Shown here: positions 3,248-59,388 of the stretch, in pieces
Layout: each line of letters opens with the position of its first letter
Position numbering within the stretch: position 1 is the stretch's first letter
Source: Candidatus Omnitrophota bacterium
GTDB lineage: Bacteria; Omnitrophota; Gorgyraeia; Zapsychrales; Zapsychraceae
DNA: 60,280 bases
Reading direction: 5' to 3'
NCBI GenBank assembly: GCA_028280285.1
Contig: JANQMA010000023.1
Span: 1-60,280 of the forward strand
Made by a program: the position numbers and the translations under genes
The notes under the pieces: generated by a model
The model's input: only the letters and a program-made list of their open reading frames with translations
The model's database searches: none
What the model was told of the DNA's origin: nothing

Positions 3248-3251
3248 TATC

Positions 3252-8027: not shown

Positions 8028-8030
8028 ATA

Positions 8031-8228: not shown

Positions 8229-8300
8229 AGAAATACACCTCCTTATACACATAGAATAGCATATATATTAAATATAGCAAACCAATAAAAAATTTTTGTA

Positions 8301-8459: not shown

Positions 8460-8484
8460 AATTATTTGATTCAATCGTCTGAAG

Positions 8485-8972: not shown

Positions 8973-9172
8973 ATTGACAACTCTACAGATTCCGCATTAG
9001 GAGTAAAACTGTTATCGTCCTCAACCGGCTCTAAATAAAGTTCAATCGCCTCTTTGATATTAGCTATCGCTTCATCCTTACTATTTCCTTCACTAAGACA
9101 ACCAGGAAGGGCCGGAACGATTGCCGTAAATCCACCTTCTTCACTTGGTTCTAAAATAATTTGTAATGTCAT
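8969..9172 (-). CDS. hicB: HicB-family antitoxin
   Basis: 67 aa. EEGGFTAIVPALPGCLSEGNSKDEAIANIKEAIELYLE. GGAGG 8 nt upstream. 4-nt overlap with hicA. Confidence 0.8.
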   Translation of the reverse strand: MTLQIILEPSEEGGFTAIVPALPGCLSEGNSKDEAIANIKEAIELYLEPVEDDNSFTPNAESVELSI

Positions 9173-9250: not shown

Positions 9251-12200
9251 CTAACACCTTCCCCCTAAAACCTTTAACATTTCTTGCCGCAGGTGGGACA
9301 AATCGCCAATCTCTGCTTTGGCCGCCTCATATGGCTCGGGATCATCCGGCAGTTCATCAGCAAGACCTAAAAATAGTGGAAGATTGGTCATCGGCTGGAC
9401 ATTAATGATCACCGGCACAAGCCCGTCAATGCTTAAGCGCAGCTGCTCAATCTGTTCTTGCGGAATATCAAACTTAAGGCAATCATCGAACGCGTCTTCC
9501 GAACAATCCGAGCCCTGCATGCCTTTGGTCTTCAACTCCCAGTTGGCGGGGTTAAGATCAATCCCACCTTTCTTAGCGTCTAGCGTAGAGCGGTTAGCGT
9601 TTAGATCACTATTCGCTATACGCTGTACGCTGCCTTCCGCCATCGCCGCCGGGTCGGGTTTAGCTTCGCTATCAAGGGCTGCAAAATCATCTTCTAAATC
9701 TGTCTTTATTTTTTGTAGATGATAAATCAATACATCCACAAAAATATTCCCTACCTTTTCTCGACTAATAACTTCCGATAATCTTCCTTTCACCGTATTC
9801 AAATATACATCAATCTCTTCTGCCTGATTGTACGTTGGGATATTTTGTTGTATCTCATATTTACTAAATGACAAAACATCCCTCACCACTTCAACATATG
9901 TATCACTTATATCTTCATGCTGTGCTATAAGCTCAGCCATACGTTCTGTTTGTTTTTGAGAAGTTAATACGAATAGATCGCTCATTAATTTTCCACGAAC
10001 AGACAGCCCCTTTTCAGTATTACTCCAAATTTCTTTAACCAAATCAAGGGTTTGAGACTTTAAATCAATAATATATAAATTAAGCGCCATCTGAGCTGTT
10101 TCTTTATCATAAAGCAATTCATCAGGATCTTCGAAATTATTAAACGCAGTTTCTTTACGAATAAAAAATTCAAAATTCATTGTATCTGTAAATTTCATTG
10201 TAATACCAAAAATCGTAAAAAGCGCATCAACATCAGGGTTATCCAAAAGATAATCAAGGATAATAGGATATAAAAATTCCAATTGATCAACCCCATTGGA
10301 ATCCTCCGTTAAATGATCACTCACAATACTCTCAATATCAGAAAGGACCTGTATTAAAAACCCCTTCATTGTAGATTTACTATATGCCTTGCTTAGTTGA
10401 TCATAGCTTGCAACTTTTTCTTCATATAACTTGCGTAAACCTTGGTGCAATCCTTTGATTGTCTTACCTGTCTTATATTTATATTCTGTGTGACTAAATG
10501 ATGCCGCATCGCCCTTGCCTCCCATCGCCGCCGGGTCGGTTGGTTCTTGATTGAGAGCAGCCGTATCGCTATCAGTGTCCTCAAACGCATCTCCCATTTC
10601 CTGCACTTCATCAATCAACCTACGGGTATCCTTTTCATACTTTTGCTGGCGTTTAATTCCTTCTATTTTTCCCTGATCAAATGGTTTTCGCACCTCATCT
10701 CTTATATCCTCAGGCAGCGCAACTAAAATATGTGCACCCACAGTTGCAAGCGCTGACAATAGTTCATCTTGTTTTTTCACACCGGGCTGGTTCACTTGCT
10801 CCTTGATTCCTTCTATTATCTGACTCAGCAACAATGGAGTATCCTCCAACCGCTGAAGAGCCGACGTCACAATAGCTCTTTGCCTTCCTTCTGAGCCTCT
10901 ATTTTTAAAAATGGAAGTAAAAAGCTCAAATGATTCTTGTTGGTCAACAACCTCATCGCCATGCACAATACTATCCAAAATACGTGTAAGAATCACAAGC
11001 TCTAGATATTTTTTATTTTTCTCAGTATCAGCATAGAGCATTTGAAGATTATCCGAAAACTCAACCACATCATATTCACTCATCGCCGCGGCATCAGCCT
11101 TATCGCCAAGCGTTTCAGCATCCGAATCATTCGACGGGTCTAAAACAGGCGTATCTGTCATTTTATGAAACGGTTTATGGACACGTAACATAAATTTTCT
11201 AAACAAATCAGATAAGGATTTCTCTAAGTCATATAACTCACTCTCATTGGCTGGTGATGCCACCATGCCCATTTCGACCAAACCCGTTATAACCTCGTCT
11301 AGAACTTTATCCGGTAATTGTGTTTCAAGGAATACACCAAGAAACTGTGCTCCTAAATCATTCTTTCCATAACCAGCATCAAGTTGCTCAGCAATGCCCT
11401 TAATGCCTTTAATCATCTTAATACCCCTAGCGTCCTTAATATCCCCAAAATAATCTCTATTAATAATATTACGTTTAAGAAATTGAGGAGAATAATCAGA
11501 GATATTAACATATCTTACTCCCTTGGATGCGTGTACAGTATCATACGGCATATGATACAACACACTTAACTTCCACATTTCTATCAAGTAGTCTCCCAAA
11601 ACATCAAATTTTTCTTTCATAATTTGTTTCAAGTAGTCTCCTAAAACCTTAAAATCTTCTTCTGTAGGAAGTTGCATTAGCTCTAACATTTTAGTAATGT
11701 TCTCTGAAGGAATCATGTGACCATTTGCCCCTCTTACAAATTCATATTTTTTTTTCTCATTCCATGGGTGTCCTGGAAATTCGCCCTTGAGCAATTTTTT
11801 CTTTTTCGCCTGAGCATCCACACCCAAAGCCAAAGCTCCTGCTGCCGATACGGCCGTTTTCACAAACTTCCTGCGATTCATCGCCGCCGGGTCGGTTGGT
11901 TCTTGCAGCGCTGCTGGTTCAGAAACGGCAGCATTTTCTCCATCAGCATAATTAGTTTGCCAATACTGCATAACCGTCTCAATGAACGGCATTAATCGTG
12001 GCTTAACGTTTTCAAATTTTGGCACATCCCCAAACAACTCGATTAATAAATCATTTGCCTCTTGCCTTATATCGTTATCATCCAAAGATTCAATAAAATC
12101 CATACGATGTTTATAGGCTGCAGGTGATGAAATAAACATCAATTTTTTCTCTTCGGGTGACAAATTTTTAATACGCCTATTAGCCGCCTCAGACCCTATT

Positions 12201-15200
12201 CGATTGCTCAACCATGCTCTTACAGCCTCCCGCGCCCCTTCCATGCTATAGCCCAAACGGCGGATCAAAAGTTCTTCCCGAATAATCCGCGCCGCTATGA
12301 CATACTCTGGCGGCCATTGAAAATCGACCAACTTTTCGGCTAACATTACTTCCGGAAAAGCACGATTAACGGCAATCTCGTGAATTAATGATTTAGGGTA
12401 TTGTGAAGCAGCAATTTCTCCTAAAGCGCCTGCCAGTTCCGCATGAGCTGTGAATCTAAACTCAGGGGCCTCTATATCAGTTGTCGCATTATATTGCTTA
12501 ATTAACCTTTCGACCGATCGTTTATAGTCGCCTCGTCGAATACGCTCTGTTGTATAAACATGTGTAGTTTCATGATAAGCTATCTCCAGTAAATAATTTT
12601 TAATAATTCGCTTATCAGAAATATTTTTAAAATCATTTTCAAATACCCGGTATACATGTTGTGCTATTTCTGCACCGATAGGATCTTTTTTAAGATCAGA
12701 TACAACAGGAGAATTATTTAATTTTCGTTTAAGATTTTCCAGTTTTTTACGAAGATAATAAAAATTAACAAACACATTGTGTCCAACCTGTCTACCTATG
12801 CCGGTAAAAATAGGATTAGGTGTATCCACCATATGAAATAGTGTCGGTTTATCCAACATAATTTCTTGTTTCACTTTGCTCTGTATATTATTTTCATAAT
12901 AGAGAGCAAGAAGATCAACGTAAACGCCATTCAAATCAAGCTTGGCTTTACGTACGAATTTTCCATCCCGACCAATGAGTGCCTGATTGTCATCCAAAAG
13001 TTTTTGTTCTAATTGTCCGATCTGATCTGGTGTTAATCCTTTGGTGATCGGTAATGCGGCCTGTGCATTCATTTTTTCTAAAAATTCATGAATAATGCTT
13101 TGTGCGGTATCCCCAGGCTGAACGATAACATGATAATAAAAACTCCATTGATCACGCACAAACCGAAATTTTGCCCCCTGCAGAAATGGAGAAACTGGCC
13201 CCAACACCATAAGCGCCCCAACTGTCCTGATAAACCTTCGTCTATTCATATCCATCGCCGCCGGGTCGGTTGGGGCGTCTTGTAGCGCTCCATCATCTTC
13301 ATTTAATACATTCGCCGTATCAGCTTTAGATAAACTTGCAAACTCAACATTGTCATAGTTCAGTTTGTTGTATATCAAATCGAAATTCACCTCACCACCC
13401 CTTATGGCACGTCGCAACAAAGATAAACTACCATCTTCTCTGGACACTTTCATAGATGCAACAGAAATTATATTCGTTAAATGCACAAGATCTTTATCAT
13501 TTGTGATTATAAATTGCGAAGAAACATCAACCATCCTTTCAACAAGTAATCGATTTCCAATAATCTTCTCTGCGTCTTTTTCTGTCGACCATTGCGATAC
13601 TGCTGAGAAAAACCTTCCCAATTCATATGGTTCTTGTTTTGACATAGCAATGTAACTACGCAAACCATGATAAAAAGACTCGTAGTCAGAAGAGATAGCC
13701 AATGAAAGATCCTCTTCAGGAAGAAGGGCATATAGACCATAAATGTCCTCATTAAAATATTGTAGTTTTTCTTCAGGCATTCCATCTCGATTGGAAGAGT
13801 TTTCAATCGAACTGATAAGTGAAAAATATCCTTTATTATGATTTACAACAGCTCTTCTTTCTTTATCACTTCCATCATGCAATCGATGAAAGTCAGATAT
13901 ATATCCAAATTGCTCCTGTATGGCCTGCGCATAACGATTAAAGCGCTCTACATCTCCATTTAGCTCACGCATTGTGTCAAGAAGATCACTAAATTGATTA
14001 GAAATCATATTCTCATCAAAAATTATACTTTCCGTATAAGGATCCCACTGATCGAATCCTGCTCGCCGATACTCTTCCTTTAACATTTCTGTAAATATTT
14101 TATTAGAATTTTGCATTGACCAATGACTTGGTAAACCATTTTCTATAATTGAAGTAATAATATTTGACTTGAGATCAAGCATAGCGCTCATCATAGGTTT
14201 AACTTCTGTTTCATCTAAAAACAGATTGTCTTCAAAAGGTTCTTTTTCGTTTGGATCACTATCATCTCCTTGTTCTTCTTCAGATATTTCTTTTTCAATA
14301 ATTGTTCGTATTTGATCGCTCTCGACCTCATCAGATGACTTGAATAAAATGACAGACATAACAAAAGCTGCTCCTGCGGCTGCAAATAGACCTATGTTTT
14401 TGAGCGTTGATAATGACGCATTATCTTTGTTTTCTGTGCGTAGTGCATTATCCATCACCGCTTGATCAAAACCAAATCCCCCAGAAAAATACTTGCGTGG
14501 GATGATTTGTTGCGCAACCGGATCGTATTCTTCTTTGATGTAGTCATAGACCCCGACTTTGAATGATTCGACATATTGATCGTAGATTTTTTGTGCCGCG
14601 CCTTCTTCACCGTGCGTGACGCCTTTGGTCTTGTTCTGATCCACGTACACTTGTGTAAGAACAGAGTTCTTGAGCTTACGTTTGTACCAGCTGGCAAGGA
14701 TGAGCGAGTTGTAGATCTGACGCAGCGGAGCAAAATGAGTTCCTTGATTCACCTCTTCTTCAAGCACCGGGAGGATAATGTCACGGATAATCTCAGCGTT
14801 TGGCGTATAGCGTTTAGCGTTTAGGGAGTTATCAGCTGATGGCTGAGAACTACTATCCGCTATCCGCTGTTCGCTACTCGCTAGAGCCAGGTAATCTTCT
14901 TCCAGCATAACTTTCAATCTACTCTCCACCACATACGCCACGCCATCACCTTCATAGACAGTCGCCTCTTCCGGGACGATCCACACCTTATTGAAAGTGT
15001 TGACCGGTATATTATCCAAGCCCGATTTTTGCTTAATCCGCTCCCAAAATTTTTGTCCCACACCTCCATCTTCCGGATACATCAGTGATGAGGTGAGCTG
15101 CTTGAGTAAATAGTCCTGGGCCAGCAATTCACGGCCCATCTCCGTCATCCCAAATTGCTCCGGAATAATTCGGTCCTCTTCATACGGGGATAAGTTCACC

Positions 15201-15520
15201 CATAGATCAGATTCGGGGACAGTCAGTGAGGCAAGGAAGTATTTGATCAGCTTGGTAGACTCTTCCTGAAGGACCTCACCTTCCATCCCCGAATCTCCGG
15301 GATCTATAATAAAATCGAATTGAAAGGGGTTTTCCGGGTTTATCTTTAAACCCTTAACTGTCACTGGGGCATAGGGTTGTGTCAAATTAAGCATATTGCC
15401 GATCGGGAGCAACACTATCGGCTGGGCAAAAGCAGAAACGGGCATCTGGATAGATGTCCATAGAAAGGCCACTATAGTAAAAATAGATATAGTTTTATTA
15501 AAAGGGGTATTTCGTCTCAT
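9251..15520 (-). CDS. Giant modular envelope protein (2,089 aa), paralog of the 3,539-aa ORF; function unknown
   Basis: Uninterrupted 6.3-kb ORF in AT-rich DNA. Sec-type signal MRRNTPFNKTISIFTIVAFLWTSIQMPVSAFA. N-terminal domain (aa ~40-355) is shared with the other giant ORF (NPFQFDFIID, DLWVNLSPYE.DRIIP, FAPLRQIY.SLILA.WYK, IIPRKYFSGGF). Six D-x-A-[AV]-M junctions end at M356, M756, M1214, M1480, M1666 and M1960. Two internal Tat-like signals. HETTH at aa 983-987. C-terminal GGIDLN...GLVPVIINVQPMTNLPLFLGLA tail. Confidence 0.9.
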   Translation of the reverse strand: MRRNTPFNKTISIFTIVAFLWTSIQMPVSAFAQPIVLLPIGNMLNLTQPYAPVTVKGLKINPENPFQFDFIIDPGDSGMEGEVLQEESTKLIKYFLASLTVPESDLWVNLSPYEEDRIIPEQFGMTEMGRELLAQDYLLKQLTSSLMYPEDGGVGQKFWERIKQKSGLDNIPVNTFNKVWIVPEEATVYEGDGVAYVVESRLKVMLEEDYLALASSEQRIADSSSQPSADNSLNAKRYTPNAEIIRDIILPVLEEEVNQGTHFAPLRQIYNSLILASWYKRKLKNSVLTQVYVDQNKTKGVTHGEEGAAQKIYDQYVESFKVGVYDYIKEEYDPVAQQIIPRKYFSGGFGFDQAVMDNALRTENKDNASLSTLKNIGLFAAAGAAFVMSVILFKSSDEVESDQIRTIIEKEISEEEQGDDSDPNEKEPFEDNLFLDETEVKPMMSAMLDLKSNIITSIIENGLPSHWSMQNSNKIFTEMLKEEYRRAGFDQWDPYTESIIFDENMISNQFSDLLDTMRELNGDVERFNRYAQAIQEQFGYISDFHRLHDGSDKERRAVVNHNKGYFSLISSIENSSNRDGMPEEKLQYFNEDIYGLYALLPEEDLSLAISSDYESFYHGLRSYIAMSKQEPYELGRFFSAVSQWSTEKDAEKIIGNRLLVERMVDVSSQFIITNDKDLVHLTNIISVASMKVSREDGSLSLLRRAIRGGEVNFDLIYNKLNYDNVEFASLSKADTANVLNEDDGALQDAPTDPAAMDMNRRRFIRTVGALMVLGPVSPFLQGAKFRFVRDQWSFYYHVIVQPGDTAQSIIHEFLEKMNAQAALPITKGLTPDQIGQLEQKLLDDNQALIGRDGKFVRKAKLDLNGVYVDLLALYYENNIQSKVKQEIMLDKPTLFHMVDTPNPIFTGIGRQVGHNVFVNFYYLRKKLENLKRKLNNSPVVSDLKKDPIGAEIAQHVYRVFENDFKNISDKRIIKNYLLEIAYHETTHVYTTERIRRGDYKRSVERLIKQYNATTDIEAPEFRFTAHAELAGALGEIAASQYPKSLIHEIAVNRAFPEVMLAEKLVDFQWPPEYVIAARIIREELLIRRLGYSMEGAREAVRAWLSNRIGSEAANRRIKNLSPEEKKLMFISSPAAYKHRMDFIESLDDNDIRQEANDLLIELFGDVPKFENVKPRLMPFIETVMQYWQTNYADGENAAVSEPAALQEPTDPAAMNRRKFVKTAVSAAGALALGVDAQAKKKKLLKGEFPGHPWNEKKKYEFVRGANGHMIPSENITKMLELMQLPTEEDFKVLGDYLKQIMKEKFDVLGDYLIEMWKLSVLYHMPYDTVHASKGVRYVNISDYSPQFLKRNIINRDYFGDIKDARGIKMIKGIKGIAEQLDAGYGKNDLGAQFLGVFLETQLPDKVLDEVITGLVEMGMVASPANESELYDLEKSLSDLFRKFMLRVHKPFHKMTDTPVLDPSNDSDAETLGDKADAAAMSEYDVVEFSDNLQMLYADTEKNKKYLELVILTRILDSIVHGDEVVDQQESFELFTSIFKNRGSEGRQRAIVTSALQRLEDTPLLLSQIIEGIKEQVNQPGVKKQDELLSALATVGAHILVALPEDIRDEVRKPFDQGKIEGIKRQQKYEKDTRRLIDEVQEMGDAFEDTDSDTAALNQEPTDPAAMGGKGDAASFSHTEYKYKTGKTIKGLHQGLRKLYEEKVASYDQLSKAYSKSTMKGFLIQVLSDIESIVSDHLTEDSNGVDQLEFLYPIILDYLLDNPDVDALFTIFGITMKFTDTMNFEFFIRKETAFNNFEDPDELLYDKETAQMALNLYIIDLKSQTLDLVKEIWSNTEKGLSVRGKLMSDLFVLTSQKQTERMAELIAQHEDISDTYVEVVRDVLSFSKYEIQQNIPTYNQAEEIDVYLNTVKGRLSEVISREKVGNIFVDVLIYHLQKIKTDLEDDFAALDSEAKPDPAAMAEGSVQRIANSDLNANRSTLDAKKGGIDLNPANWELKTKGMQGSDCSEDAFDDCLKFDIPQEQIEQLRLSIDGLVPVIINVQPMTNLPLFLGLADELPDDPEPYEAAKAEIGDLSHLRQEMLKVLGGRC
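9576..9630. repeat. In-frame palindromic heptamer element, (GCGNNTA)x4 ... (TNNNCGC)x3
   Basis: gcgtcta gcgtaga gcggtta gcgttta g atcac tattcgc tatacgc tgtacgc. Encodes ~SVQRIANSDLNANRSTLDA, a segment missing from the equivalent place in the other giant ORF. Confidence 0.7.
9641..9660. repeat. GC-rich junction repeat, degenerate copy
   Basis: catcgccgccgggtcgggtt (KPDPAAM, M1960). A further variant, catcgccgcggcatcagcc, lies at 11081-11099 (DAAAM, M1480). Confidence 0.8.
10523..10549. repeat. GC-rich junction repeat, same core
   Basis: catcgccgccgggtcggttggttcttg. Precedes MGGKGD (M1666). Confidence 0.9.
11879..11908. repeat. GC-rich junction repeat, same core
   Basis: catcgccgccgggtcggttggttcttgcag. 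The first 27 nt are identical to the copy at 10523. Precedes MNRRKF (M1214). Confidence 0.9.
13253..13285. repeat. GC-rich junction repeat, core CATCGCCGCCGGGTCGGTTGG (encodes PTDPAAM on the minus strand)
   Basis: catcgccgccgggtcggttggggcgtcttgtag. Precedes MDMNRRRF (M756). Confidence 0.9.
14803..14881. repeat. In-frame palindromic heptamer element, (GCGTWTA)x3 ... (TNNNCGC)x4
   Basis: gcgtata gcgttta gcgttta ... tcagctga ... tatccgc tatccgc tgttcgc tactcgc. Encodes SSEQRIADSSS...SLNAKR inside the shared N-terminal domain. Confidence 0.7.
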
Positions 15521-42507: not shown

Positions 42508-42509
42508 TT

Positions 42510-45095: not shown

Positions 45096-45121
45096 AATCA
45101 GTTCCTTAAATACCTCTAGTA

Positions 45122-48768: not shown

Positions 48769-51700
48769 TTAAATCATAGCCGGCTCAATGGCGGATAATT
48801 CGTACTCCTCTTCTTCCTGGCGGGGTGCAAGGCCAAGGAGCGGAAGCACGCTTGGCAGAGGAACAAAATTAATAATGACAGGGGTAAAGCCGCGCACATT
48901 GCCGAAATCCTCAAGTGCCGCCGGGTCAAAGTCGATCGTCACACCAGAGCCCTGACGCTCTACCTCAATATCATTCATATCAATCCCACCAACATCCGTC
49001 ATCACAGCATCATCTTTACCATCTTTCTTAACTTTTATTTGATAATAGTCGGGCTGCGTGTCTCCGCCTTTATTATAAGGCCCATTAACAACTTCAACCC
49101 CTTCAGGATAATGATCTGACTCAATTTCTATAATTTCATATTCTTCATCATCCAAACTTGCCAAATCAATCCCAGCTAAGTCAACCATTGTCTCACCTGT
49201 ATCAACAGACGTATCCAACACCCCGGCGTCAAGCGAAGTACGATATTGATTTAAAAGAGCCCCTGCGTGAATCACTTCTTCCATATACACATTCGGAGTA
49301 TGAAAACTCGGATATTCATGCATTCTATATCCAAGAGAAAAACTCTCCCCGTTTCGTGCTAAAACAATCGCATATGGCAATAGAGAAAAAATATACTCTT
49401 CAATTTTTTCTTCATTTAACCTGTCGTAATCTTTTGTATTCAGACTAGCATTAATTTTTTCCAGTTTTTCTTTTAAAATATCATGCTGTTGCTTCGCCAA
49501 CCGCGCAAGAGCTTGATCTTCCTTTTCCGGTGATTTAGTTCTAATAACTTCTAAATAAGCTTCTTTTCTTTTTTGTTTCCACGTCGTAATTGCCAACCTA
49601 TCGCGTATCATCATTTTTTGCCAACTATTTTGAAACGAATCTTTACTATGTTTATTTCGATAATTTAAATAATCCTGTAATAAATAAACTCCAAAAGTCG
49701 ATACAAATAGAATCCCTACAAAAGTCGTCAGTAAAACTGTCTGAAACGTGTCATCCGACATACCCAACACCGCGGCATCGGTATTATTTAACACATAAAG
49801 TATTTCGCGCGCCTTTACACGAAGATCTAAATAATCAACAACAGTATCACTCGATCCTCTATCTTTAAAATTAACACGTCCTGCTGTAATATCGTCAACA
49901 GCTGAAATTTTTTCTAAAACAATATTTAATCTTCGTGCTTGATCGGCATCTAAGGCATAGCGATATTTATGAACAACCAAAAGTTCCTCTAAAAATCGAT
50001 CCCGCTCCTGAACTAATTGTTGTTTAGTTTCACCAAACATAGCATAAAACATATTGTCCCCAACATATTCTATTTGCTCTTGCGAAAAATACAGCGGTAA
50101 CACATCTAAATCTAAAAACTCCTCTACTGCCCGATCAATATCTTTTCTCGAAACATTTCGATTTTTTTCATTCCATTGCTCTTTCAAATTCAAAACATGA
50201 AGTCGAGCCGATAACTTTCTTGCAAATTTTCTTACCTCATCATATAAAATGATTTCTCGCTTATTGCCATCTTCTTTCCAAGCTTGAGAAGAAACTTCTT
50301 CAAAAATATCTTGAACAATATTAACCTCACTTAATTTTTCGATTAATCTTTCTCGCTGGTCATATCTAAATTCACCTAAATAGTCGTTTAACAATTTTAA
50401 CTTATCTAACACCTTTGCCTTTTCTTCCAATAATGATTTTTGCATATCCAAAACATAAATCTGCTCAGCTTCGCTTTCGGCATAAAATGCTTTGTATCTA
50501 TTTCTTTCTTGAAATAAATCACCTTTCACAAAACGATTAACAAAAGAAGATATTTCAGCCCTATTATCACCACGCCCGTCTTCCAATTGATAAAAATGAT
50601 CAAAATCCGGCATTTTTTCTAAAAAGCTATCTGTTGTTCTTTTGGTATCAGAAGTTGAGACACTCTGAGGCGTAAAAACAGTGTCGTAACGATCCATTGT
50701 TTCAAATGTGGCTAGCTCCAAATCACGTTGTAGATTAATATCAAACCCAATATTTAATCCATTCATGTGTTTATTAACAATACCCTTATAGGGCGCATAC
50801 TCTTGTTCAGTCATTGGGTTAGCAATATACGCAAATGTAATATGCCCGACAAATGGAAATTGTGCATGAATATCAGTCCTTTTAGATATCACTGTACGAA
50901 TAACATCAATACCTTTAACAGTTTCTCTATTTTGAGGCTCCACCAAGGCAAGCAATAAAAATGGCGCAAAAGAGCCTAATTCTGTTATTTGAAAATTAAG
51001 ATTGTCAAATGCCTTTGTATCATGTAATTGCTCAAAAGCCGTCTTTACCTTTTGGACAACAATCTTCTCAACATCCTGCTGCGGCTTTCCTTGATATTCA
51101 ATATTCCTTTCTTTAATACGCGCAAGATCATCTGGATTAACCAAATCCTTAAACGTCATATGAAAAGAATCTTCATCCACAAATGCAAGCTTATCCCTTA
51201 GTCCCGCCTCGTTAATATCTTGTTCAATAGCACGTTTGACATCAACAAGCTGACTTTGTGTCCTATCATCAAAGCGAACAATCACTGTATTTCCACGAAA
51301 TTCTTTAAACTCCAAGCTATCTGGATCAAGCTTCGCCCTTGCCGGAATCACATCCTGTTCAGTAAGCTCAATTCGTTCATTCCGTAAATTTGAAAATTCA
51401 TTAAATGCTGCTTTTCTACCGGCACCAATTAATACTTTAGCTGCCTGCTCTAAATCATTAGTGTCGCTTGCAAAAATACGTATGCGATAACCAAATGTAT
51501 TTCCAACCTGAGTAGGGTCTTCTTGTAATTCTATTCCTTTTGAGTCAAGTAATGCCACTACTTGATCTAACTTAATTTCAGGAATTGTCACTTCGATTTG
51601 AGTATTATTAATAATAGCGCTCTGTCCATAAATTCGTTGCACTTCCTCCCGCAATTCATCCAACACCGCCGCGTCGTCTGCGGGCCCCTTTGCAGCTTCC

Positions 51701-54700
51701 TTTAACACCGCATTATCACCATCATCTTTTTTTGTAAAATACCCTAATAATATACCAAAGCTTCCTACAACAACCATTGCTACACCTAATACAGTAAAAA
51801 AATCCGCAGACGACATTGTGGCAAAATCATCAACATCAGCTTTCTGTCCCAACACCGCTGAGTCAACTCTAAACACTCTATCAGTCACATCCTTATTATC
51901 TCCTTGTGTTCTTTTATCCACAATATCAATCGCTAACTTCACATAACCACTTCGTTCAGTAGTCTCATAAAGATTAGCTGATTCGCTTATAAGAGAACGT
52001 ATGTGCTTCAATTCAATATCTGCATTTTCGCCTAATTCCATATAGCGTTTGATTTGGTCTAATACCGGTGGGTGCACATATACTGAAACACCGCCTCTAT
52101 TCCACATTTCATCAACTATCTTTTCATCTGCTTTCTTAAGAATTTGTTTTTTATAAATCTCATATTGAACTGTTAAATTTAGATCTTTTAAAGGCTCATA
52201 AGTCCTTAAAAGATACCCTGCACGCGCCCATTCATCAATAGAAACATTTGGAGTATTAAAACCAGGGTAATCATACATTGTATATTTTAGAGAAAATTTT
52301 TCACTGTTTTGAGCCAACAAAATAGCACTAGGTAACAATGAAAAAATATTTTCTGTTATTTGTTCATCTGACATTTTGTCATAATAACGCGTATCTAATG
52401 TCTCATTTATTCTTTCTAATTCACCCTTTAAAAAGTCAAACTGCTCTTTAACAAGCTTGGCTTTAATCTGATGCCTTCTATCTTTTGATTTACTATTGAC
52501 TATATTGTAATAAGCATTTTCACGCTTCTCTTGCCAATCCAATATTCCAGTAGAATTAAATAGCGCCAACCAATCTTCTTCAAAACCTTTAATAACTTTA
52601 TTTTCACGAAACTTTAAATATCCCCCTAAAAGTGGCGCGCCTAAAGCAAGTCCAAGTGTAATCACTAGAAAGGCTACCGTCTTAATTGTCTCAGCTGTAT
52701 CAACAGACATACCCAACACTGCATCATCTTTTTTAATAACTTCAACTCTAACTGAAGTAGTAAAATCTTCTTTTTTAGGTTCTTCAGGAAGGCTAGCAGG
52801 GGGACCACTCGCATCTATCTCCCCTATTTCGTACCACGCCATCGCTTCTGCATACCCTGTCTCATCAAAAATAGCTTCATGATATATCACATCAAACTTT
52901 TCATGAGCACGGTAAATTTCGTCGCCAATAATATCTATTACTTTTTGAATATTATTATTAGTAACAGCATCATATGCGTGTGGCTTTAGTTTATCCTGGA
53001 TAGCTTGTCTTGCCTCTCTGGATGTTATACGATCCCATTTTAATAAATCACCTAACTCAAACTTCTTTATCGCCTCAGATAATAATTCATACTGCGGCGT
53101 CTGTTCCGCATACCATCCGTCAGGTCGCACGCCTCGTGTTCCCCCCATATTGGAACCGGTCATTGTAGAAGAGAAATATTCATACTCCTTCGCGACACGA
53201 TTCATAACAGTATTTTTCAAATACTCTAATCCACGATAATCCCCCGATAAATACATTTCTCCCACAAAATCAACCGCATCTTTAATTGCTGTATGAGGCA
53301 ATGAATCCTCATTATACCTTTCCATCTCACCGGTGAGCTCATCGGCGGTGAACATCTTGTCTTCAGCAGTTAACTCCTGTAGCTCATCCCACAAATCGTT
53401 TAAATACTGCTCATCGCCAGTTTTCTTAGCATTCATTGCCTTTTCTGTTAAAAAATCCGCTGCTTTTATTTCATCCTGCATAAATCCAAACTGCTCTAAC
53501 GCTCTCTTGGCTTCAGAAGAAACATACTTATCCGCATGGGCAAGATTATTTTTTAATGTTCTAACGGCGCGCCAATAGCCAAGCTCTCCTAATGTGCTCA
53601 TCGGCTGCCAAGGATAAGGATGGTGACCATTTTTTGCCGCAGCCATGTTGGCAATCACGAGATCTTCTGCAGTAAATTCCGAAGGATATGAAAGAAATAA
53701 TTTAGCGACCTGCTCATGAATCTTTTTGTTAGAATAACCGAGAAAAGGTAGTACATACTTATTATAACTCCCATCATAATCTTGACGTGCTATTTCCCAT
53801 CCTATTTTACGAATAGCATCTAATATTTCTTGTTCAGAATGTTCATTTGGATTTTCTAAAATTTTAATTGCTGTTTTCAAGAACACAACAATCGTCGCGG
53901 CATCAGTTTCTTGCAATGTCGCACGATCTTTTTTAAGAATGTATGGTTCATTATCTCCTGTTGGAACATTCTTAGACGGATCATTTAAACCGGAAAAAAT
54001 AATATAATAAGGTTCTTCGTCCCTGTCGTGAATATTTAACGGTCGCTTTTGTCTAATAGCCGACGTAGCATTGGCACTGCTGCGTTTTCTTTCGATTTTT
54101 AATGCTATTTGACTAGGTCTGTTAGCCAGGTTTTTTAACAATTCCGGCAGTTTTACAATAAGACCCTTTGTTTCACCGGAACGCAAAGTTGTTTTGGGTT
54201 TATTGGTATCTTTGCCTTCTTCTATAAAGCCAACCTCAGCTTTTAAGCCCACATCGGTATCATCCCATTGAAGATAGGCGTCAACATTTGTAATCGACAT
54301 TTTTTCCGTGCCATTATTTTCCAAAAAAACATATAAATTATTGTCATACCATTCAACCGAGGCGCCTGGAATAGAAGTACGTATGCCTAGAACGATAAAA
54401 TCGGCCGTGGTTTTAGTGACATTAACTTCTTTAACACCGTCCCACTGCGTTGGCATCTTAACTTTATCCGGAACAAAATTGCGAATAGAGTCGACGTTAA
54501 ACGATGTTTGTGCGCCTGCCGTACATACCCCGGCCAAACACACCGTCATCAAACTTACAGTAAGCATTGGCAATACCTTAGATTTAAACAGCATCGCCTT
54601 ATCACCTTCGATGACTTTTTTGACAAAGACTCCGATTAATGGGTTTTCTTGGCTTATACGGGAGAAAAGCTCCTTTTGTGTTAGTTTCACCGCATTAAGC

Positions 54701-57700
54701 AATCCGCCCATTTCTTCAGAAAGCTCATTCTTTTCATCAGACGTAAGTTCCTTATGAAGCGCGATCGCATCCTTCCAATTTTGTGCCGATAATATCTTAA
54801 GGTCACCTTCTACCGTCCAGTCTCCACTCGCATAGTTAGCTATCAGACGAAACGTTTCCCCCACAATGTCATAAAGCGTGGTTTCTTCTCTTTGGTAGTC
54901 AACCGTATAGCTGACAGGTTTGATTTGCCCTTCTTCAAGAAGGCCTTCACTTATATATTTTGCAATGACACTATTAAACTGACCCTTAGTTCTTAATTGC
55001 TGCAGTGGTGTGTGCATATATAAAATTGTCTGTTCTTGCCCATAAGTAAAAAGGCCTCCATCCTTCATCAAATCGATTGACTTGGTAAAATTTTGCACAG
55101 TATACAAAGCATCCGGTTCGATCAAAACAATGTCATCGTTTTTAAGATCTTTTGCAATATTCGCAAATTGTGAGCCTTCTTCCTCAGCCATTTTTATCAT
55201 AAGTATGCGTATTAAATCCGCTTCTGACACCGTCTCATCGGTTACTTCGGCCATTTTGCGTAAATCAGCCGTTGCTCTTCCTTTTTTACCGGAAATGAGA
55301 ATTTTGTTTCCAATTCCTTGTTGATAAAGATGCATAATTTTTGTTAGGGCGTTTATATCGCTGTTGCCCGGTATCATTAAAATGTCGACACCTGCAGTTG
55401 CCAGCTCTCGTTCGTTTACATCATTATGCACAAGCTTACGAATCAGAGAATCTTCCTTTGTGGCCACATCCAATACGTGGAGAATATGGTCGCCCTTCTG
55501 TTGACGGGAATCCCGACTCTCATCGTTGACCAAATCCGTATACAACGACTCAACCAAATCTGGATTTTTCATACTTCCCAAAACAATCTCCGCCATCGCT
55601 TTTCTGTTGTTTAAAGATTCATTATTAACTAGTGCCTTCATTTGAACTGTAGCCACTATATAATCTTTGCCTTTCCCAAGGGTGCCTTCATCCGTTTCTT
55701 GTGCCGCTTTATTAAGAGGTTTATCAGGATCGATCGTGGGCTCTACAATTTCCGGTGGGATATTAGTGAATAAAAATGTCCTTACTTCATTCGTTTTACG
55801 ATGTTTGTAAACGGCATAGAGCGGATCATCATTGGGTATTTTTTCCCAATTAAAAAACTGAAAAGCTTCTTCAATAAATGCCGCTTCCTGTTGCGCAAAA
55901 AAGTTGGCATATTCGGTATTAATTATATTTTCATATGCCTCTAATCGGTCCGCTAAAGAATTGTCAGCTTGTGCCAAAATATTACGATTGCGTTCAAACT
56001 GATGCAATTCTTCGACATCCATTGGTTTTTCACGAACCACACCAATATGAAAATAATTTCGAATTTTTTTTCTTTCAGGACGAGGCAATTGCCGCACCTG
56101 CTCATAACGCTCCTCAATCGATTGACCGGTAATTCTCTGTTCCGCCAGATCAAGTAACGCGACACTACTGTACTCATCATAAGCCTGCTTTAACTCCCCC
56201 CTTGCAATAAATCTACTCACAATTATTTTCGGACGTGAAACACTAACAAAATCTACCAGCTCGGGTTCACTAAGCATCTCTTCTTTAACACTCTTTATAT
56301 TCCAGTGTACATAAGGATCTGCTGCGGACGCATATTCAACAATTTCAGTAAGCAAAACCCCCTGAAGGACCAATCTTACTTTTTCATCATACACACGCTC
56401 GTTTAAAATATTCTCTGGAACCTGATTTTTATTATAGGAGACAACTTCCGATGTTAACCTGTTTTTATACGTTATAACATTCTTATCTTGAGAAATCTTT
56501 TTCCATAATTCTTGTAAGTTGGAACGATCATAAAAATACGCAAACCTTTTAATCATTGTTTGCAAGCGCTCTGCTACGATCCAATTTTCTTCACCTCTAC
56601 CACCTTTTTTAAAATAGTCATATACATACTTCACCTTGGCATAAAACTCGGGATCACGTTTTGCTAAATTCCGCTCCAAATATTTGAAAAGAAACCCGGG
56701 CACTTGATGTCCGCCTAAAATGTCAGGGTCTCCATATTTATACAATTCTTGAAATATTTTTGTATCGATTTTCTTTTTATCAACATTCTTATCGATCATT
56801 TTTGTGATCGTCTCTTCTTCCAATACAAAAATAGCATTATGGTTTAAGAAAGCCTTGCCGCCATACCAGAATAAGATGAGTCCTTCTGGTATAAGCAAAA
56901 TAGGTGCATAAAAAATGGAGGCGACTACGGCTGCCACGGCCCCCACACCTATTAGAGCTTTGGTGACCCATGACAATTTCTTAGGAAAAAATATTTGATC
57001 CATCTCAGCGGATACTTCTTGAATAGAGTATTTATGCGCATTTTTTATACTCCTTTCCGCCTCTATCAACGTCATCGCCGCGTCGTCTTTACCGTTTTCC
57101 TCATTTCCTTTCGACGACACATTGCCATAATATTTCTCCTCCAAAAGATTAACTTCATCTAGAGTAGCTGGTTTTTTTAATTTATCAGGATAAATCAAAT
57201 AATCATATAGTTTGCCTAAGTCAGAATTGACCTCTTGTGTTAATTCATATAATGCATTGCTATATTCTATATTCCCTTTTTTAAATCCTTCTTGGAACTC
57301 ACGCTTAAGTCTCATTTCTTCCTGTCCAACAAAAGTAATTAGCTCATTTATGCGTGAACGCGTACTCTCATAGCGCAAAGAATTAATGACACTCTCAATA
57401 AATATTAAAAAGATGTTTATCAAAAAGGCTGAATCGGCATCAACATCTTCCGCCATCGCCGCGGCGTCTGTATTCTGTGAACCACCTTCCTTAAGAACAG
57501 CATCATCTTTATTATCTTTCTTAACTTTTATTTGATAATAGTCGGGCTGCATGTCTCCGCCTTTATTATAAGGACCATTAACAACATCAGCCCATTCAGG
57601 ATAATGATCTGACTCAATTTCCATAATTTCATATTCTTCATCATCCAAGTTTGCCAAATCAATCCCGGATAAGCCAACAATTGTCTCACCTGTATCAACA

Positions 57701-59388
57701 GACATACCTAACACCGCGTCGTCTTTTTTGTCATTCCTTGACATTTCATCAAGCTCTTCTTCTGATATAAACGGATCGTCTTGTATTTCTCCCACCCCTT
57801 CTTTACCCAGCTGCTGTAAAACTTTATCATTTATCCATTTGTGTCGCCTTTTCAGCAATCTCAGTTTTTGAATAGCTTTTTGTTTTTGCTCACCACTCAA
57901 ATTTGGAATAGTCTCCTCCAAATTCTCCATTTCTTGTTCTATAGATTCTAACCTATCCACATTTTTGCTAACGGCCATAGCCAGCCTAACCCCTACATAA
58001 ATTATAAAAACCGCTATGACTATGCCAATCTCCGGTGGAAAAGAGTCTTGTTGAGCAAAATAGTTATTATCAAAAAGGTTCATCAAGATCATATATTTTC
58101 TAACTAACGCCGCCGCGTCGTCTGCAAACCCCTCCACATCTTCCTTATCTTCCTTGCCAATCAACATAGCAAAGTCATCCTGCCACCCTAATTGCTTTAA
58201 TTCTTTTGCTTCTTTTTTAGCCAACGCATCCATTGCCGCACTATCTTGATCCGCGATAACGCGTGCAGTAGCTTGATACCGATCACCTACCCCTGCAAAG
58301 GCTGCCATATCCGCATTGTCTGTTGGGGCAATGATGATGGCCGTATCATGAAAACCACCGGAGAAATATTTGCGTGGAATGATGGTTTGGCTTATTGCGT
58401 CGTAGTCTTCTTTAATAAAAGAAAACACGCCCTTCTCATAGGCCTGCATGTAGCGGTTGTAGATTTCGTTGGTTATTTTTTCATCGCCGGTTTCGATCCC
58501 ATCGACTTTGTTTTGATCAGCATAGACTTTGGATAAAAGACTGTTTTTGATATTTTGTTTGTACCATTTGGCGAGGATCAGGGAATGATAGATCTGGCGC
58601 AGTGGTGCGAAATTCTTACCTTGATTTATTTCACGTTCGATTTCGGGAAGGATGAGCTCGCGGATGACTGCAGCGTGTAGCGGTAAGCGTTTAGCGTTTA
58701 GATTACTACTTTCTTTATTCTGATCACTGCTATCCGCTATACGCTCTTCGCTATACGCTAAATAATCTTCTTCCAACATAACTTTCATCCTGGAGTTCAC
58801 TACATACACTGTCCTGTCATACTCATACACACTCGCACTTTCCGGTAAGATCCATACTTTATTAAATAAATCGGTCGGAACTTCATTGATACCGTACTTT
58901 TCGCGGGCCAACCTTTGCACGCGCTTCCAAAACTTCTTACCCAGTTCATCTTCCGGATACATCATGCTGGCGGTTAGTTGTTTTAATATATAATCCTGCG
59001 CAAGCAAGTCACGTCCAAGCGCCGTCTTACCTAATTCATCGGGAATAATGCGATCCTTTTCATACGGAGACAAGTTCACCCACAAATCATCTTGCGGAAC
59101 TGTCATGGCGGCCAAAAAGTACTTTACAAGCTTTTCGGTCTCTTTCTTAACCTCATCAGCATCAAGGGCAGAATTGCCACTATCAATAATAAAATCAAAT
59201 TGGAAAGGATTATCGGGGTGGATAGTCATCCCCTTCAAAAGCACCGGCACATAGGCAGGGCTTTGCAGAACCATAGCCCCCGGAACCGGCAGATTAAGCG
59301 CATTGATTGATTGCGCGTAACTTGGTGGAATTATAGAAGTAGTTGTAAAACAGATAATAATGATACAAGAAATGATTCGGTTAATCAT
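48769..59388 (-). CDS. Giant modular envelope protein (3,539 aa), paralog of the 2,089-aa ORF; function unknown
   Basis: Uninterrupted 10.6-kb ORF. Sec-type signal MINRIISCIIIICFTTTSIIPPSYA. N-terminal domain and C-terminal tail (GGIDMN...GFTPVIINFVPLPSVLPLLGLA) are shared with the other giant ORF. 13 D-x-A-[AV]-[ML] junctions plus one GDKAML variant. At least 7 internal hydrophobic helices. Internal Sec-like signal at aa 1599-1628. 2H-phosphoesterase-like HxTx pair (H2743, H2849). DUF218-like segment (aa ~1327-1467). Confidence 0.9.
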   Translation of the reverse strand: MINRIISCIIIICFTTTSIIPPSYAQSINALNLPVPGAMVLQSPAYVPVLLKGMTIHPDNPFQFDFIIDSGNSALDADEVKKETEKLVKYFLAAMTVPQDDLWVNLSPYEKDRIIPDELGKTALGRDLLAQDYILKQLTASMMYPEDELGKKFWKRVQRLAREKYGINEVPTDLFNKVWILPESASVYEYDRTVYVVNSRMKVMLEEDYLAYSEERIADSSDQNKESSNLNAKRLPLHAAVIRELILPEIEREINQGKNFAPLRQIYHSLILAKWYKQNIKNSLLSKVYADQNKVDGIETGDEKITNEIYNRYMQAYEKGVFSFIKEDYDAISQTIIPRKYFSGGFHDTAIIIAPTDNADMAAFAGVGDRYQATARVIADQDSAAMDALAKKEAKELKQLGWQDDFAMLIGKEDKEDVEGFADDAAALVRKYMILMNLFDNNYFAQQDSFPPEIGIVIAVFIIYVGVRLAMAVSKNVDRLESIEQEMENLEETIPNLSGEQKQKAIQKLRLLKRRHKWINDKVLQQLGKEGVGEIQDDPFISEEELDEMSRNDKKDDAVLGMSVDTGETIVGLSGIDLANLDDEEYEIMEIESDHYPEWADVVNGPYNKGGDMQPDYYQIKVKKDNKDDAVLKEGGSQNTDAAAMAEDVDADSAFLINIFLIFIESVINSLRYESTRSRINELITFVGQEEMRLKREFQEGFKKGNIEYSNALYELTQEVNSDLGKLYDYLIYPDKLKKPATLDEVNLLEEKYYGNVSSKGNEENGKDDAAMTLIEAERSIKNAHKYSIQEVSAEMDQIFFPKKLSWVTKALIGVGAVAAVVASIFYAPILLIPEGLILFWYGGKAFLNHNAIFVLEEETITKMIDKNVDKKKIDTKIFQELYKYGDPDILGGHQVPGFLFKYLERNLAKRDPEFYAKVKYVYDYFKKGGRGEENWIVAERLQTMIKRFAYFYDRSNLQELWKKISQDKNVITYKNRLTSEVVSYNKNQVPENILNERVYDEKVRLVLQGVLLTEIVEYASAADPYVHWNIKSVKEEMLSEPELVDFVSVSRPKIIVSRFIARGELKQAYDEYSSVALLDLAEQRITGQSIEERYEQVRQLPRPERKKIRNYFHIGVVREKPMDVEELHQFERNRNILAQADNSLADRLEAYENIINTEYANFFAQQEAAFIEEAFQFFNWEKIPNDDPLYAVYKHRKTNEVRTFLFTNIPPEIVEPTIDPDKPLNKAAQETDEGTLGKGKDYIVATVQMKALVNNESLNNRKAMAEIVLGSMKNPDLVESLYTDLVNDESRDSRQQKGDHILHVLDVATKEDSLIRKLVHNDVNERELATAGVDILMIPGNSDINALTKIMHLYQQGIGNKILISGKKGRATADLRKMAEVTDETVSEADLIRILMIKMAEEEGSQFANIAKDLKNDDIVLIEPDALYTVQNFTKSIDLMKDGGLFTYGQEQTILYMHTPLQQLRTKGQFNSVIAKYISEGLLEEGQIKPVSYTVDYQREETTLYDIVGETFRLIANYASGDWTVEGDLKILSAQNWKDAIALHKELTSDEKNELSEEMGGLLNAVKLTQKELFSRISQENPLIGVFVKKVIEGDKAMLFKSKVLPMLTVSLMTVCLAGVCTAGAQTSFNVDSIRNFVPDKVKMPTQWDGVKEVNVTKTTADFIVLGIRTSIPGASVEWYDNNLYVFLENNGTEKMSITNVDAYLQWDDTDVGLKAEVGFIEEGKDTNKPKTTLRSGETKGLIVKLPELLKNLANRPSQIALKIERKRSSANATSAIRQKRPLNIHDRDEEPYYIIFSGLNDPSKNVPTGDNEPYILKKDRATLQETDAATIVVFLKTAIKILENPNEHSEQEILDAIRKIGWEIARQDYDGSYNKYVLPFLGYSNKKIHEQVAKLFLSYPSEFTAEDLVIANMAAAKNGHHPYPWQPMSTLGELGYWRAVRTLKNNLAHADKYVSSEAKRALEQFGFMQDEIKAADFLTEKAMNAKKTGDEQYLNDLWDELQELTAEDKMFTADELTGEMERYNEDSLPHTAIKDAVDFVGEMYLSGDYRGLEYLKNTVMNRVAKEYEYFSSTMTGSNMGGTRGVRPDGWYAEQTPQYELLSEAIKKFELGDLLKWDRITSREARQAIQDKLKPHAYDAVTNNNIQKVIDIIGDEIYRAHEKFDVIYHEAIFDETGYAEAMAWYEIGEIDASGPPASLPEEPKKEDFTTSVRVEVIKKDDAVLGMSVDTAETIKTVAFLVITLGLALGAPLLGGYLKFRENKVIKGFEEDWLALFNSTGILDWQEKRENAYYNIVNSKSKDRRHQIKAKLVKEQFDFLKGELERINETLDTRYYDKMSDEQITENIFSLLPSAILLAQNSEKFSLKYTMYDYPGFNTPNVSIDEWARAGYLLRTYEPLKDLNLTVQYEIYKKQILKKADEKIVDEMWNRGGVSVYVHPPVLDQIKRYMELGENADIELKHIRSLISESANLYETTERSGYVKLAIDIVDKRTQGDNKDVTDRVFRVDSAVLGQKADVDDFATMSSADFFTVLGVAMVVVGSFGILLGYFTKKDDGDNAVLKEAAKGPADDAAVLDELREEVQRIYGQSAIINNTQIEVTIPEIKLDQVVALLDSKGIELQEDPTQVGNTFGYRIRIFASDTNDLEQAAKVLIGAGRKAAFNEFSNLRNERIELTEQDVIPARAKLDPDSLEFKEFRGNTVIVRFDDRTQSQLVDVKRAIEQDINEAGLRDKLAFVDEDSFHMTFKDLVNPDDLARIKERNIEYQGKPQQDVEKIVVQKVKTAFEQLHDTKAFDNLNFQITELGSFAPFLLLALVEPQNRETVKGIDVIRTVISKRTDIHAQFPFVGHITFAYIANPMTEQEYAPYKGIVNKHMNGLNIGFDINLQRDLELATFETMDRYDTVFTPQSVSTSDTKRTTDSFLEKMPDFDHFYQLEDGRGDNRAEISSFVNRFVKGDLFQERNRYKAFYAESEAEQIYVLDMQKSLLEEKAKVLDKLKLLNDYLGEFRYDQRERLIEKLSEVNIVQDIFEEVSSQAWKEDGNKREIILYDEVRKFARKLSARLHVLNLKEQWNEKNRNVSRKDIDRAVEEFLDLDVLPLYFSQEQIEYVGDNMFYAMFGETKQQLVQERDRFLEELLVVHKYRYALDADQARRLNIVLEKISAVDDITAGRVNFKDRGSSDTVVDYLDLRVKAREILYVLNNTDAAVLGMSDDTFQTVLLTTFVGILFVSTFGVYLLQDYLNYRNKHSKDSFQNSWQKMMIRDRLAITTWKQKRKEAYLEVIRTKSPEKEDQALARLAKQQHDILKEKLEKINASLNTKDYDRLNEEKIEEYIFSLLPYAIVLARNGESFSLGYRMHEYPSFHTPNVYMEEVIHAGALLNQYRTSLDAGVLDTSVDTGETMVDLAGIDLASLDDEEYEIIEIESDHYPEGVEVVNGPYNKGGDTQPDYYQIKVKKDGKDDAVMTDVGGIDMNDIEVERQGSGVTIDFDPAALEDFGNVRGFTPVIINFVPLPSVLPLLGLAPRQEEEEYELSAIEPAMI
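49000..49218. repeat. Intragenic direct repeat R2 (~216 nt), copy near the 3' end of the giant gene
   Basis: Encodes VLDTSVDTGETMVDLAGIDLASLDDEEYEIIEIESDHYPEGVEVVNGPYNKGGDTQPDYYQIKVKKDGKDDAVM. About 90% nucleotide identity by eye to 57493-57711. Confidence 0.9.
57493..57711. repeat. Intragenic direct repeat R1 (~216 nt), copy near the 5' end of the giant gene
   Basis: Encodes VLGMSVDTGETIVGLSGIDLANLDDEEYEIMEIESDHYPEWADVVNGPYNKGGDMQPDYYQIKVKKDNKDDAVL. Confidence 0.9.
58673..58758. repeat. In-frame palindromic heptamer element, (GCGNNTA)x4 ... (TNNNCGC)x4
   Basis: gcgtgta gcggtaa gcgttta gcgttta ... tatccgc tatacgc tcttcgc tatacgc. Encodes YSEERIADSSDQ...SSNLNAKR. Confidence 0.7.

Follow-up and report, generated by a model that had tools for sequence, protein, structure and literature searches.

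The window analysed here, the whole 60,280-nt stretch of contig JANQMA010000023.1 (assembly GCA_028280285.1, Candidatus Omnitrophota bacterium), carries nearly all of its long open reading frames (ORFs) on the minus strand, and two giant ones among them, ORF A (9251..15520, 2089 aa) and ORF B (48769..59388, 3539 aa), are the subject of this report. Each begins with a Sec-type signal that ends in AxA|Q (in ORF A aa 1–31, ...VSAFA|QP, 15428..15520), continues with a conserved N-domain and closes with a conserved C-domain, and between these caps lie protein-sized cassettes delimited by a short junction peptide: five cassettes in ORF A, and in ORF B a chain with around 16 junction motifs and with helices just after junctions. 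Within both chains, right after certain junctions, stand segments that look like export signals of the Sec or the twin-arginine translocation (Tat) type, and it is their meaning that we consider here. Both giant ORFs and their parts lie on the minus strand, as do the pilus-type operon, the ORF at 59440-60006 and the orphan copy described at the end.

The N-domain of ORF A occupies aa 32–351 (14468..15427) and ends with RKYFSGG; the regions comprising Sec signal and N-domain extend over 14441-15520 in ORF A and 58309-59388 in ORF B, and the two ORFs share 53% identity over 365 aa here. Invariant residues of this domain include WVNLSPYE, DYxLKQ and RKYFSGG, and the AQ site of the N-terminal signal is nearly invariant throughout the family. 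The C-domain, present in most complete relatives, has the form GGID(L/F)NP ... PVIINxxP..LP.LLGL (aa 1985–2089 of ORF A, with the stop codon 9251..9568, GGIDLNP...VPVIINVQPMTNLPLFLGLA...; aa 3467–3539 of ORF B). A search with the first 360 aa of ORF A returned 1312 database homologs, almost all from Candidatus Omnitrophota or Omnitrophica, of which the top 120 are 47–58% identical to the ORF A N-domain; the 79 GTDB loci that were kept show 49–58% identity to it, and a scan of one genome per GTDB species counted at least 587 copies of the family, several per genome. We define the family by a Sec signal with an N-domain of about 340 aa, variable cassettes between junction peptides, and a C-domain, and the relatives used below are 76 ORFs of this family, the shortest of 129 aa and the longest of more than 3700 aa. 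The N-domain is covered by neither a Pfam nor an NCBIfam model, and its AlphaFold2 (AF2) model (mean predicted local distance difference test score, pLDDT, 75) matched no entry of the PDB at E <= 0.001 by Foldseek; going by this model, the N-domain seems to have a fold that has yet to be characterised, and each Omnitrophota genome has many copies of it, and the idea that it might be a recognisable protease was dropped as unsupported, there being no PDB fold match for the model.

Between the caps, some relatives carry central-metabolism enzymes, located between junction motifs and behind the exported N-domain (loci L003:9980-21085 (+), L057 and L014). In L003 these are malate synthase, isocitrate lyase and class I aldolase, each bounded by junction motifs; across the three loci the cassette enzymes also include 2-hydroxyacid dehydrogenase, and L014 has GDPD and PRTase-CE domains in addition.

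The junction peptide has the family-wide form D-x-A-[M/V/A]-[L/M/V/I]. Matches to D.A[AVM][MLIV] number 126 in the 76 relatives against about 25 in shuffled sequences, an approximately fivefold enrichment; within the window ORF A has eight matches to the expression D.A[AV][ML] and ORF B has 14, and with the family-wide form the counts beyond residue 250 are eight and 16, respectively. The median junction-to-junction distance is 255 aa, and a junction also stands directly after the N-domain and before the C-domain. ORF A contains DQAVM directly after the N-domain (aa 352–356, 14453..14467), DPAAM (aa 752–756, 13253..13267), DPAAM (aa 1210–1214, 11879..11893), DAAAM (aa 1476–1480, 11081..11095), DPAAM (aa 1662–1666, 10523..10537) and, preceding the C-domain, DPAAM (aa 1956–1960, 9641..9655), while the ORF B junction DKAML (aa 1596–1600, 54589..54603) contains M1599. 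At the fourth motif position the other genomes (n = 115) have M in 82 cases (71%), V in 25 (22%) and A in eight (7%); the source genome uses DxAAM or DxAVL, and in some genomes DxAVL is used throughout. Because position 4 varies among M, V and A and some genomes keep to DxAVL, the junction Met is a conserved motif residue and is not demonstrably an old start codon. The first-pass annotation of the window had described the internal signals as full and Met-initiated, which is misleading on this count and also because the homologous signal of one relative (P0121) has no Met.

The junctions of ORF A are conserved at the DNA level as well, as an exact repeat of 17–27 nt in four copies: the DPAAM junction at aa 752–756 lies in this repeat, and that of aa 1210–1214 shares a run of 27 identical nt with the copy at 10523-10549. 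The 12-mer CCGGCGGCGATG occurs four times in the window, against an expected 0.13, and all four copies are at ORF A junctions. At position 3, the codon for Ala is GCG in 18 of the 24 window junctions (p = 3e-6); for the other genomes the figure is 54 of 115 (p = 1e-5). A recombination handle, recent shuffling or spread of cassettes, a weak nucleotide constraint, or an effect at the level of RNA or translation may account for this conservation. An exact scan of metagenome contigs with 21 nt of junction DNA found no relatives, only chance-like matches, eight of the nine loci having 59–69% G+C. We also noted that the sequence CCGACCCGGCGGCGATG has four copies in ORF A (window 9641-13279), two of which have 27 identical nt in common, and that GAC is the preferred codon for the junction Asp in this window as in other genomes. 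The C-domain itself has a junction-like DPA(A/M)L within it, in ORF B at aa 3488–3492 (nt 48913-48927, DFDPAALEDF) and in the relatives L001 and P0091 as LDPAMLDLQ or MDPAMLAQL, which suggests a possible relationship between the junction and a portion of the C-domain.

The cassettes between the junctions appear to be the units in which the family evolves. Cassette 2 of ORF A (aa 756–1213), whose body (aa 781–1209, 11894..13180) contains an HExxH motif (YHETTH), aligns from junction to junction, signal-like segment included, with one unit in P0121 and two tandem units in P0122. All four of these homologous HExxH units keep the signal-like segment at an identity of only 21–29%, and since it is present in every one of them it has been kept over long divergence; the cassette as a whole is missing from most relatives. 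The internal repeats of ORF B likewise have their starts at junctions; they are aa 2221–2402 and 3204–3387 (43% identity; nt 52183-52728 and 49228-49779) and aa 556–636 and 3387–3467 (78% identity; nt ~57481-57723 and 48988-49230). A full HMMER scan of 1.84 billion representative proteins with aa 740–1480 of ORF A gave two remote matches, both inside family members; when cassette 2 of ORF A and aa 1590–2220 of ORF B were used for word-index searches, no homologs came up; and no free-standing homolog of the ORF A cassettes or of the ORF B cassette was present among the 1.84 billion representatives. A gene-fusion origin, which the first-pass annotation had offered in the form of formerly separate secreted-protein genes joined in frame, therefore cannot be shown. 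The AF2 model of cassette 2 (pLDDT 61) had no PDB match at E <= 0.001 by Foldseek, and sequence searches with both ORFs against Pfam, NCBIfam and the PDB gave almost nothing, namely one 2H-phosphodiesterase match and one sub-threshold match to a Tat hidden Markov model. The former (DUF1868; ORF B aa 2693–2782, nt ~51043-51312), in the cassette that starts from the junction at aa 2571 (DDAAV), is the sole above-threshold Pfam match in either giant ORF.

Two of the signal-like segments are in ORF A, where PTDPAA is followed by M756-DMNRRRFIRTVGALMVLGPVSPF and, further on, by M1214-NRRKFVKTAVSAAGALALGVDAQA-KKKK, and one is in ORF B, where GDKA is followed by M1599-LFKSKVLPMLTVSLMTVCLAGVCTAGAQT; all three were located in frame right after their junctions at exactly the positions first reported. 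The first extends from M756 (nt 13255-13253) to L780 (13181..13255; MDMNRRRFIRTVGALMVLGPVSPFL, from M756 also given as MDMNRRRFIRTVGALMVLGPVSPF) and consists of N-RRRFIR and a 15-aa uncharged core, TVGALMVLGPVSPFL, with a mean Kyte–Doolittle (KD) value of 1.67; it has no clear AxA site. The second, M1214–A1238 (MNRRKFVKTAVSAAGALALGVDAQA; 11807..11881), which is followed by KKKK, was said to fit the Tat consensus with a hydrophobic region and an AxA site; it has N-RRKFVK, a 13-aa uncharged core, TAVSAAGALALGV, with a mean KD value of 1.75, and an AQA site. In Tat signals the h-region reaches a threshold of about 13 residues after RR (TATFIND-type rules). Both ORF A segments fit the consensus S/T-R-R-x-F-L-K in the n-region and have an uncharged, mildly hydrophobic h-region of at least about 13 residues, and their cores (13–15 residues, mean KD ~1.7) lack the length and the hydrophobicity of ordinary membrane helices but are typical of Tat signals. 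The ORF B segment, M1599–T1628 (MLFKSKVLPMLTVSLMTVCLAGVCTAGAQT; 54505..54594), had been called a textbook Sec signal. It does have a basic n-region (MLFKSK), a hydrophobic h-region (VLPMLTVSLMTVCLAGVC) and a small-x-small c-region (TAGA|QT), yet its core of 18–22 residues is long for a cleaved Sec signal and is compatible with a signal anchor. With positions 756 and 1214 in an uninterrupted ORF of 2089 aa and position 1599 of 3539, the three segments are away from the N-terminal location of a precursor's signal, which the Tat-like ones would gain only after cleavage at the junction.

Similar segments recur in the family. Among the relatives there are six internal signal-like segments of the RR type, compared with 1.3 in shuffled sequences, and all of them, together with those of P0026 and P0121, read RRxF[L/I/V]; the signals at equivalent places are RRQFLSK in L008, RRRFLG in L046, RRAFLKK in P0087, RREFLK in P0026 and RRNFL in P0121. 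By comparison, only one of ten RR-containing N-termini of neighbouring ordinary ORFs has F at this position. Many of the internal signals of the relatives end in an AxA-type site. A hydrophobic segment follows within 20 aa at 13 of 139 junctions, against 3.2 at random positions, and eight of the ten hydrophobic peaks of ORF B fall within 45 aa after a junction (permutation p < 0.0002). Judged from these sequence patterns, the internal segments look like real export signals placed at exact cassette starts and not like a chance pattern. What the first-pass annotation observed is thus confirmed; its interpretation is partly supported, as will be seen below.

If each of these segments threaded a single chain through the membrane, their orientations should be compatible with one another. 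ORF A has a helix (IGLFAAAGAAFVMSVILF; aa 376–393, 14342..14395) 19 aa after its first junction, and then two successive N-in signals, at 766–780 and at 1222–1234, with no helix between them. In ORF B the junction DDAVL (aa 2221) with the helix 2237–2258 (52615..52728), whose cassette is repeated at aa 3204, the junction DSAVL (aa 2509) with the helix 2530–2552 (51733..51864) and the junction DAAVL (aa 3204) with the helix 3217–3237 (49678..49779) all have a charge bias that favours N-out/C-in. Threading would put the HExxH cassette on the outer side of the membrane in ORF A and on the inner side in P0121, and P0122 would have one on either side. Helix alternation in members with at least two well-separated helices was underpowered (two same, two alternating, 14 ambiguous) and was replaced by a test of the first hydrophobic segment after the exported N-domain: threading demands N-out for this segment, and in 48 members N-in was the commoner (14 N-in, six N-out, 28 ambiguous). 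Simple threading of a single chain fits these data poorly.

Considering the motif, its recurrence throughout the family, its match to cassette boundaries, the signals and helices right after it and the conflict with simple single-chain threading, we suggest that ORFs A and B are polyproteins which are separated at the junctions, with the signal-bearing units then exported independently, a reading to which we assign a probability of roughly 0.45. In such a polyprotein, the Sec-exported N-domain and the conserved C-domain would cap a string of protein-sized cassettes, each beginning at a junction peptide, and each internal Tat- or Sec-type segment would serve its own cassette as N-terminal export signal or signal anchor. 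Separation would most likely take place in the cytoplasm, at or beside the junction, for example as DxA|M; signal-bearing units would then be exported or inserted independently, by Sec for those of the M1599 type of ORF B and by Tat for those of the RRxF type if the cell has a Tat system, and units without a signal would remain in the cytoplasm. The cleavage itself, the exact bond, the protease and the use of Tat are what we infer here, the DxA|M bond being guessed by analogy with proteases that cut after Ala. We prefer separation at the junction because all of the topology conflicts then vanish and because it explains how cytoplasmic enzymes can share an ORF with an exported N-domain. The first-pass annotation had named three options (fusion, with the old signals now acting as transmembrane (TM) anchors; cytoplasmic cleavage at the junction followed by independent export; internal translation starts), and it is the second that fits the topology evidence best.

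Several observations weigh against this polyprotein reading. No peptidase was found in ORF A or B by Pfam, NCBIfam or PDB searches, the models of the N-domain and of cassette 2 match no known protease fold, and no conserved neighbour, such as a dedicated protease or transporter, was found around the 79 related loci; the HExxH cassette, which most relatives lack, may be considered a candidate for the cognate protease. The cell would also have to coordinate a cut made in the cytoplasm with the export of the N-domain by Sec. The Tat assignment also has its difficulties: the M1214 segment reached only 13.2 bits with TIGR01409 (residues 1215–1234; cut-off 16.7), which did not report M756, and neither segment matched Pfam TAT_signal. 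A tblastn search for TatA and TatC, with E. coli queries, found none in the window and 88 loci, which are a small fraction of any genome; in the literature pairing Omnitrophota with twin-arginine or TatC we found nothing relevant. The orientation calls are a simple K/R count that leaves 28 of 48 ambiguous. Finally, only about 10% of junctions precede a hydrophobic segment, and the junction is therefore not specifically a signal-exposing site.

A chain that stays whole is the rival that survives best, although we regard it as unlikely. The internal segments would then be topogenic, start- and stop-transfer anchors threading the inner membrane via Sec/YidC with the RR segments handed to Tat, and signal peptidase I might trim the AxA sites, as at the internal signals of flavivirus polyproteins. 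DeepTMHMM surveys have read long Omnitrophota proteins in just this manner, as a signal peptide and many scattered helices (Nielsen & Lui 2026, 10.64898/2026.06.07.730766), and the ORF B helices are 21–24 residues long and strongly hydrophobic. In addition, dual Sec-Tat membrane proteins such as the actinobacterial Rieske protein Sco2149 provide a precedent (PMC3471235, PMC5449189): such proteins have, like the M756 and M1214 segments, an internal low-hydrophobicity twin-arginine segment with basic residues after it and Sec-inserted segments before it. The handover rule of PMC5449189 describes ORF A through cassette 2 well, with the Sec signal, the helix 376–393, and then RRR and 766–780 with K/R/R after; 1222–1234 followed by KKKK has the same form. 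However, dual Sec-Tat proteins end in the Tat-dependent helix and a C-terminal exported cofactor domain, whereas ORF A continues with a second Tat-like signal and about 870 aa, and the number of preceding helices in its relatives is of the wrong parity. No cofactor domain was recognised in ORF A, just the HExxH motif. An uncleaved chain also has to accommodate the consecutive N-in signals of ORF A, the three ORF B helices with the same N-out/C-in bias, orthologous HExxH cassettes on opposite membrane sides in ORF A, P0121 and P0122, the excess of N-in (14) over N-out (six) in the first segment after the exported N-domain, and relatives with cytoplasmic enzymes behind that domain and no helix between. 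Orientation and parity thus conflict with the earlier suggestion that the old signals now act as TM anchors. The junction motif and the export signals behind it also speak against taking each internal hydrophobic segment for a membrane anchor; if the chain is uncleaved after all, this family is a severe test of the positive-inside and topology rules.

We think it improbable that the segments are relics, that is, secreted-protein genes captured in frame, with junction DNA serving as a recombination handle for cassette shuffling and with signals that are now inert. The exact DNA repeat of 17–27 nt at four ORF A junctions, the preference for GCG at position 3 in the window and in other genomes, the duplication of ORF B cassettes at junction boundaries and the orphan copy of the ORF A 3' end downstream (see below) are all in keeping with such shuffling. 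Against inert signals, all four HExxH units at 21–29% identity have kept the signal-like segment, the strict RRxF[L/I/V] recurs in unrelated cassettes of different genomes, and there are no free-standing donor genes for the cassettes. A recombination role of junction DNA is, moreover, compatible with functional signals and no substitute for them.

Separate synthesis of the units, by internal initiation at the junction ATG with nested products or by a 2A-like skip of a peptide bond, would give independent export without a protease, but we hold it to be highly improbable. Position 4 or 5 is usually ATG, the position-4 Val of ORF B is encoded by GTG in eight of nine junctions, and the source genome makes little use of Shine–Dalgarno (SD) sequences. 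The GTG bias is absent from other genomes (six of 25), and 26 of 139 junctions have no ATG, GTG or TTG at motif position 4 or 5, L012 and L070 having mostly GTC/GTT and CTN there; SD-like sequences precede junction ATGs in 7% of cases, as against 9.7% for the remaining internal ATGs and 24% for the starts of ORFs. Internal initiation is disfavoured because of these junctions without a start codon and because SD-like sequences are not enriched, as had been suspected from the DNA upstream of both ORF A Met residues, which is indeed ACCGACCCGGCGGCG. The lack of an SD sequence there, which had served as the argument, is weak evidence on its own since most ordinary genes of the window are also without a clear SD sequence. 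A start-codon role for the junction as a general mechanism was accordingly rejected, the GTG bias being absent from other genomes and many junctions being without a start codon. As to a skip, the junction motif has no likeness to 2A, and no 2A-like mechanism is known from bacteria.

Least probable of all is that the whole protein is an exported effector, cut at its junctions in a host or prey cell where the internal signals use the host's Sec or Tat: Omnitrophota have been called episymbionts or predators (West-Roberts et al. 2023, 10.1101/2023.11.21.568195; Nielsen & Lui 2026), the ORFs have an N-terminal Sec signal and ORF B is upstream of a pilus/secretin operon, but the idea is pure inference, the cassettes of relatives include ordinary enzymes of central metabolism, and no secretion-system link is conserved across the 79 loci.

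Of the objects described so far, those that come closest to ORFs A and B are long Omnitrophota proteins, either multi-enzyme or membrane-associated (West-Roberts et al. 2023; Nielsen & Lui 2026). They are from the same phylum and have in common with the two ORFs an N-terminal signal peptide, unrelated enzyme-like modules in one ORF and scattered hydrophobic helices, approximately one per module; those studies applied a cut-off of 10 kaa, which ORFs A and B, at 2–3.5 kaa, do not reach. Whether such very long proteins act as one chain or as cut pieces is a question raised in published work: cleavage into smaller products has been proposed for them, information on the cleavage points was stated to be absent (West-Roberts et al. 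2023), and signal-peptide calls were deliberately removed on every chunk after the first (Nielsen & Lui 2026). Text searches of both papers found no mention of a junction motif, of N- and C-domain caps or of internal signal peptides, and the family-wide cassette architecture is, as far as the literature was searched, undescribed. The junction motif and the export signals that follow it are concrete, testable candidates for processing sites. We put forward, tentatively and as less likely than not, the wider claim that these are true bacterial polyproteins, in which hundreds of chromosomal Omnitrophota genes encode chains that are cut at D-x-A|M-type junctions into independent proteins, some of them complete Sec or Tat precursors and others cytoplasmic enzymes. 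Were this true, the family would represent a rare case of systematic polyprotein expression in bacteria, the long ORF would be an operon at the protein level, and the motif would supply the cleavage sites that earlier Omnitrophota work called missing.

Two further systems offer partial parallels. The polyproteins of Flaviviridae contain internal signal sequences, and the birnavirus protease VP4 has a Ser/Lys dyad and cuts after Ala. Like viral polyproteins, ORFs A and B combine in one ORF protein-sized units with a short boundary motif that has Ala at the presumed P1 position, some of the units being led by a signal; unlike them, the family is bacterial and chromosomal, has many copies per genome and no recognised protease domain, and its cleavage is putative. 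Polymorphic toxins, for their part, have a demarcation motif (VENN in CdiA, DPxGL in Rhs) and orphan cassettes. The present family resembles them in that a motif conserved both as peptide and as DNA marks where one exchangeable module borders on the next, and in the displaced 3' fragment downstream of ORF A, but differs in that there are many boundaries per protein, the C-terminus is conserved, no toxin/immunity pairs were recognised and the cassettes include ordinary enzymes.

The ordinary neighbours in the window encode RodA, PBP2, MreC, MreB, EPSP synthase, a class I tRNA synthetase and a PilB/PilC/PilN/PilO/secretin operon. This type IV pilus or type II secretion-like operon (40924-48536), with genes for a PilB/GspE ATPase (46818-48536), PilC/GspF (45612-46811), a PilN-domain protein (43584-45095), PilO (42962-43723) and a secretin (40924-42507), has ORF B directly upstream of it; the 79 related loci show no conserved link of this kind. 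Immediately upstream of ORF B, the ORF at 59440-60006 has a weak match to an IS200-like Y1 transposase (22.6 bits; cut-off 23). About 800 bp downstream of ORF A lies an orphan copy of the last ~125 nt of its C-domain (window 8280-8480; flanking regions 8485-9172 and 7626-8252), which is ~87% identical and encodes ...VPVIINVQPMTNLPLFLGLADDLPDDPEPYEAAKAAIGDLS.... Genes for HicB, HicA and DUF2442 lie between ORF A and this copy, and beyond it are those for VapB and a PIN-domain VapC; the copy looks like an older 3' end of ORF A that was displaced by a toxin–antitoxin insertion or a recombination event.

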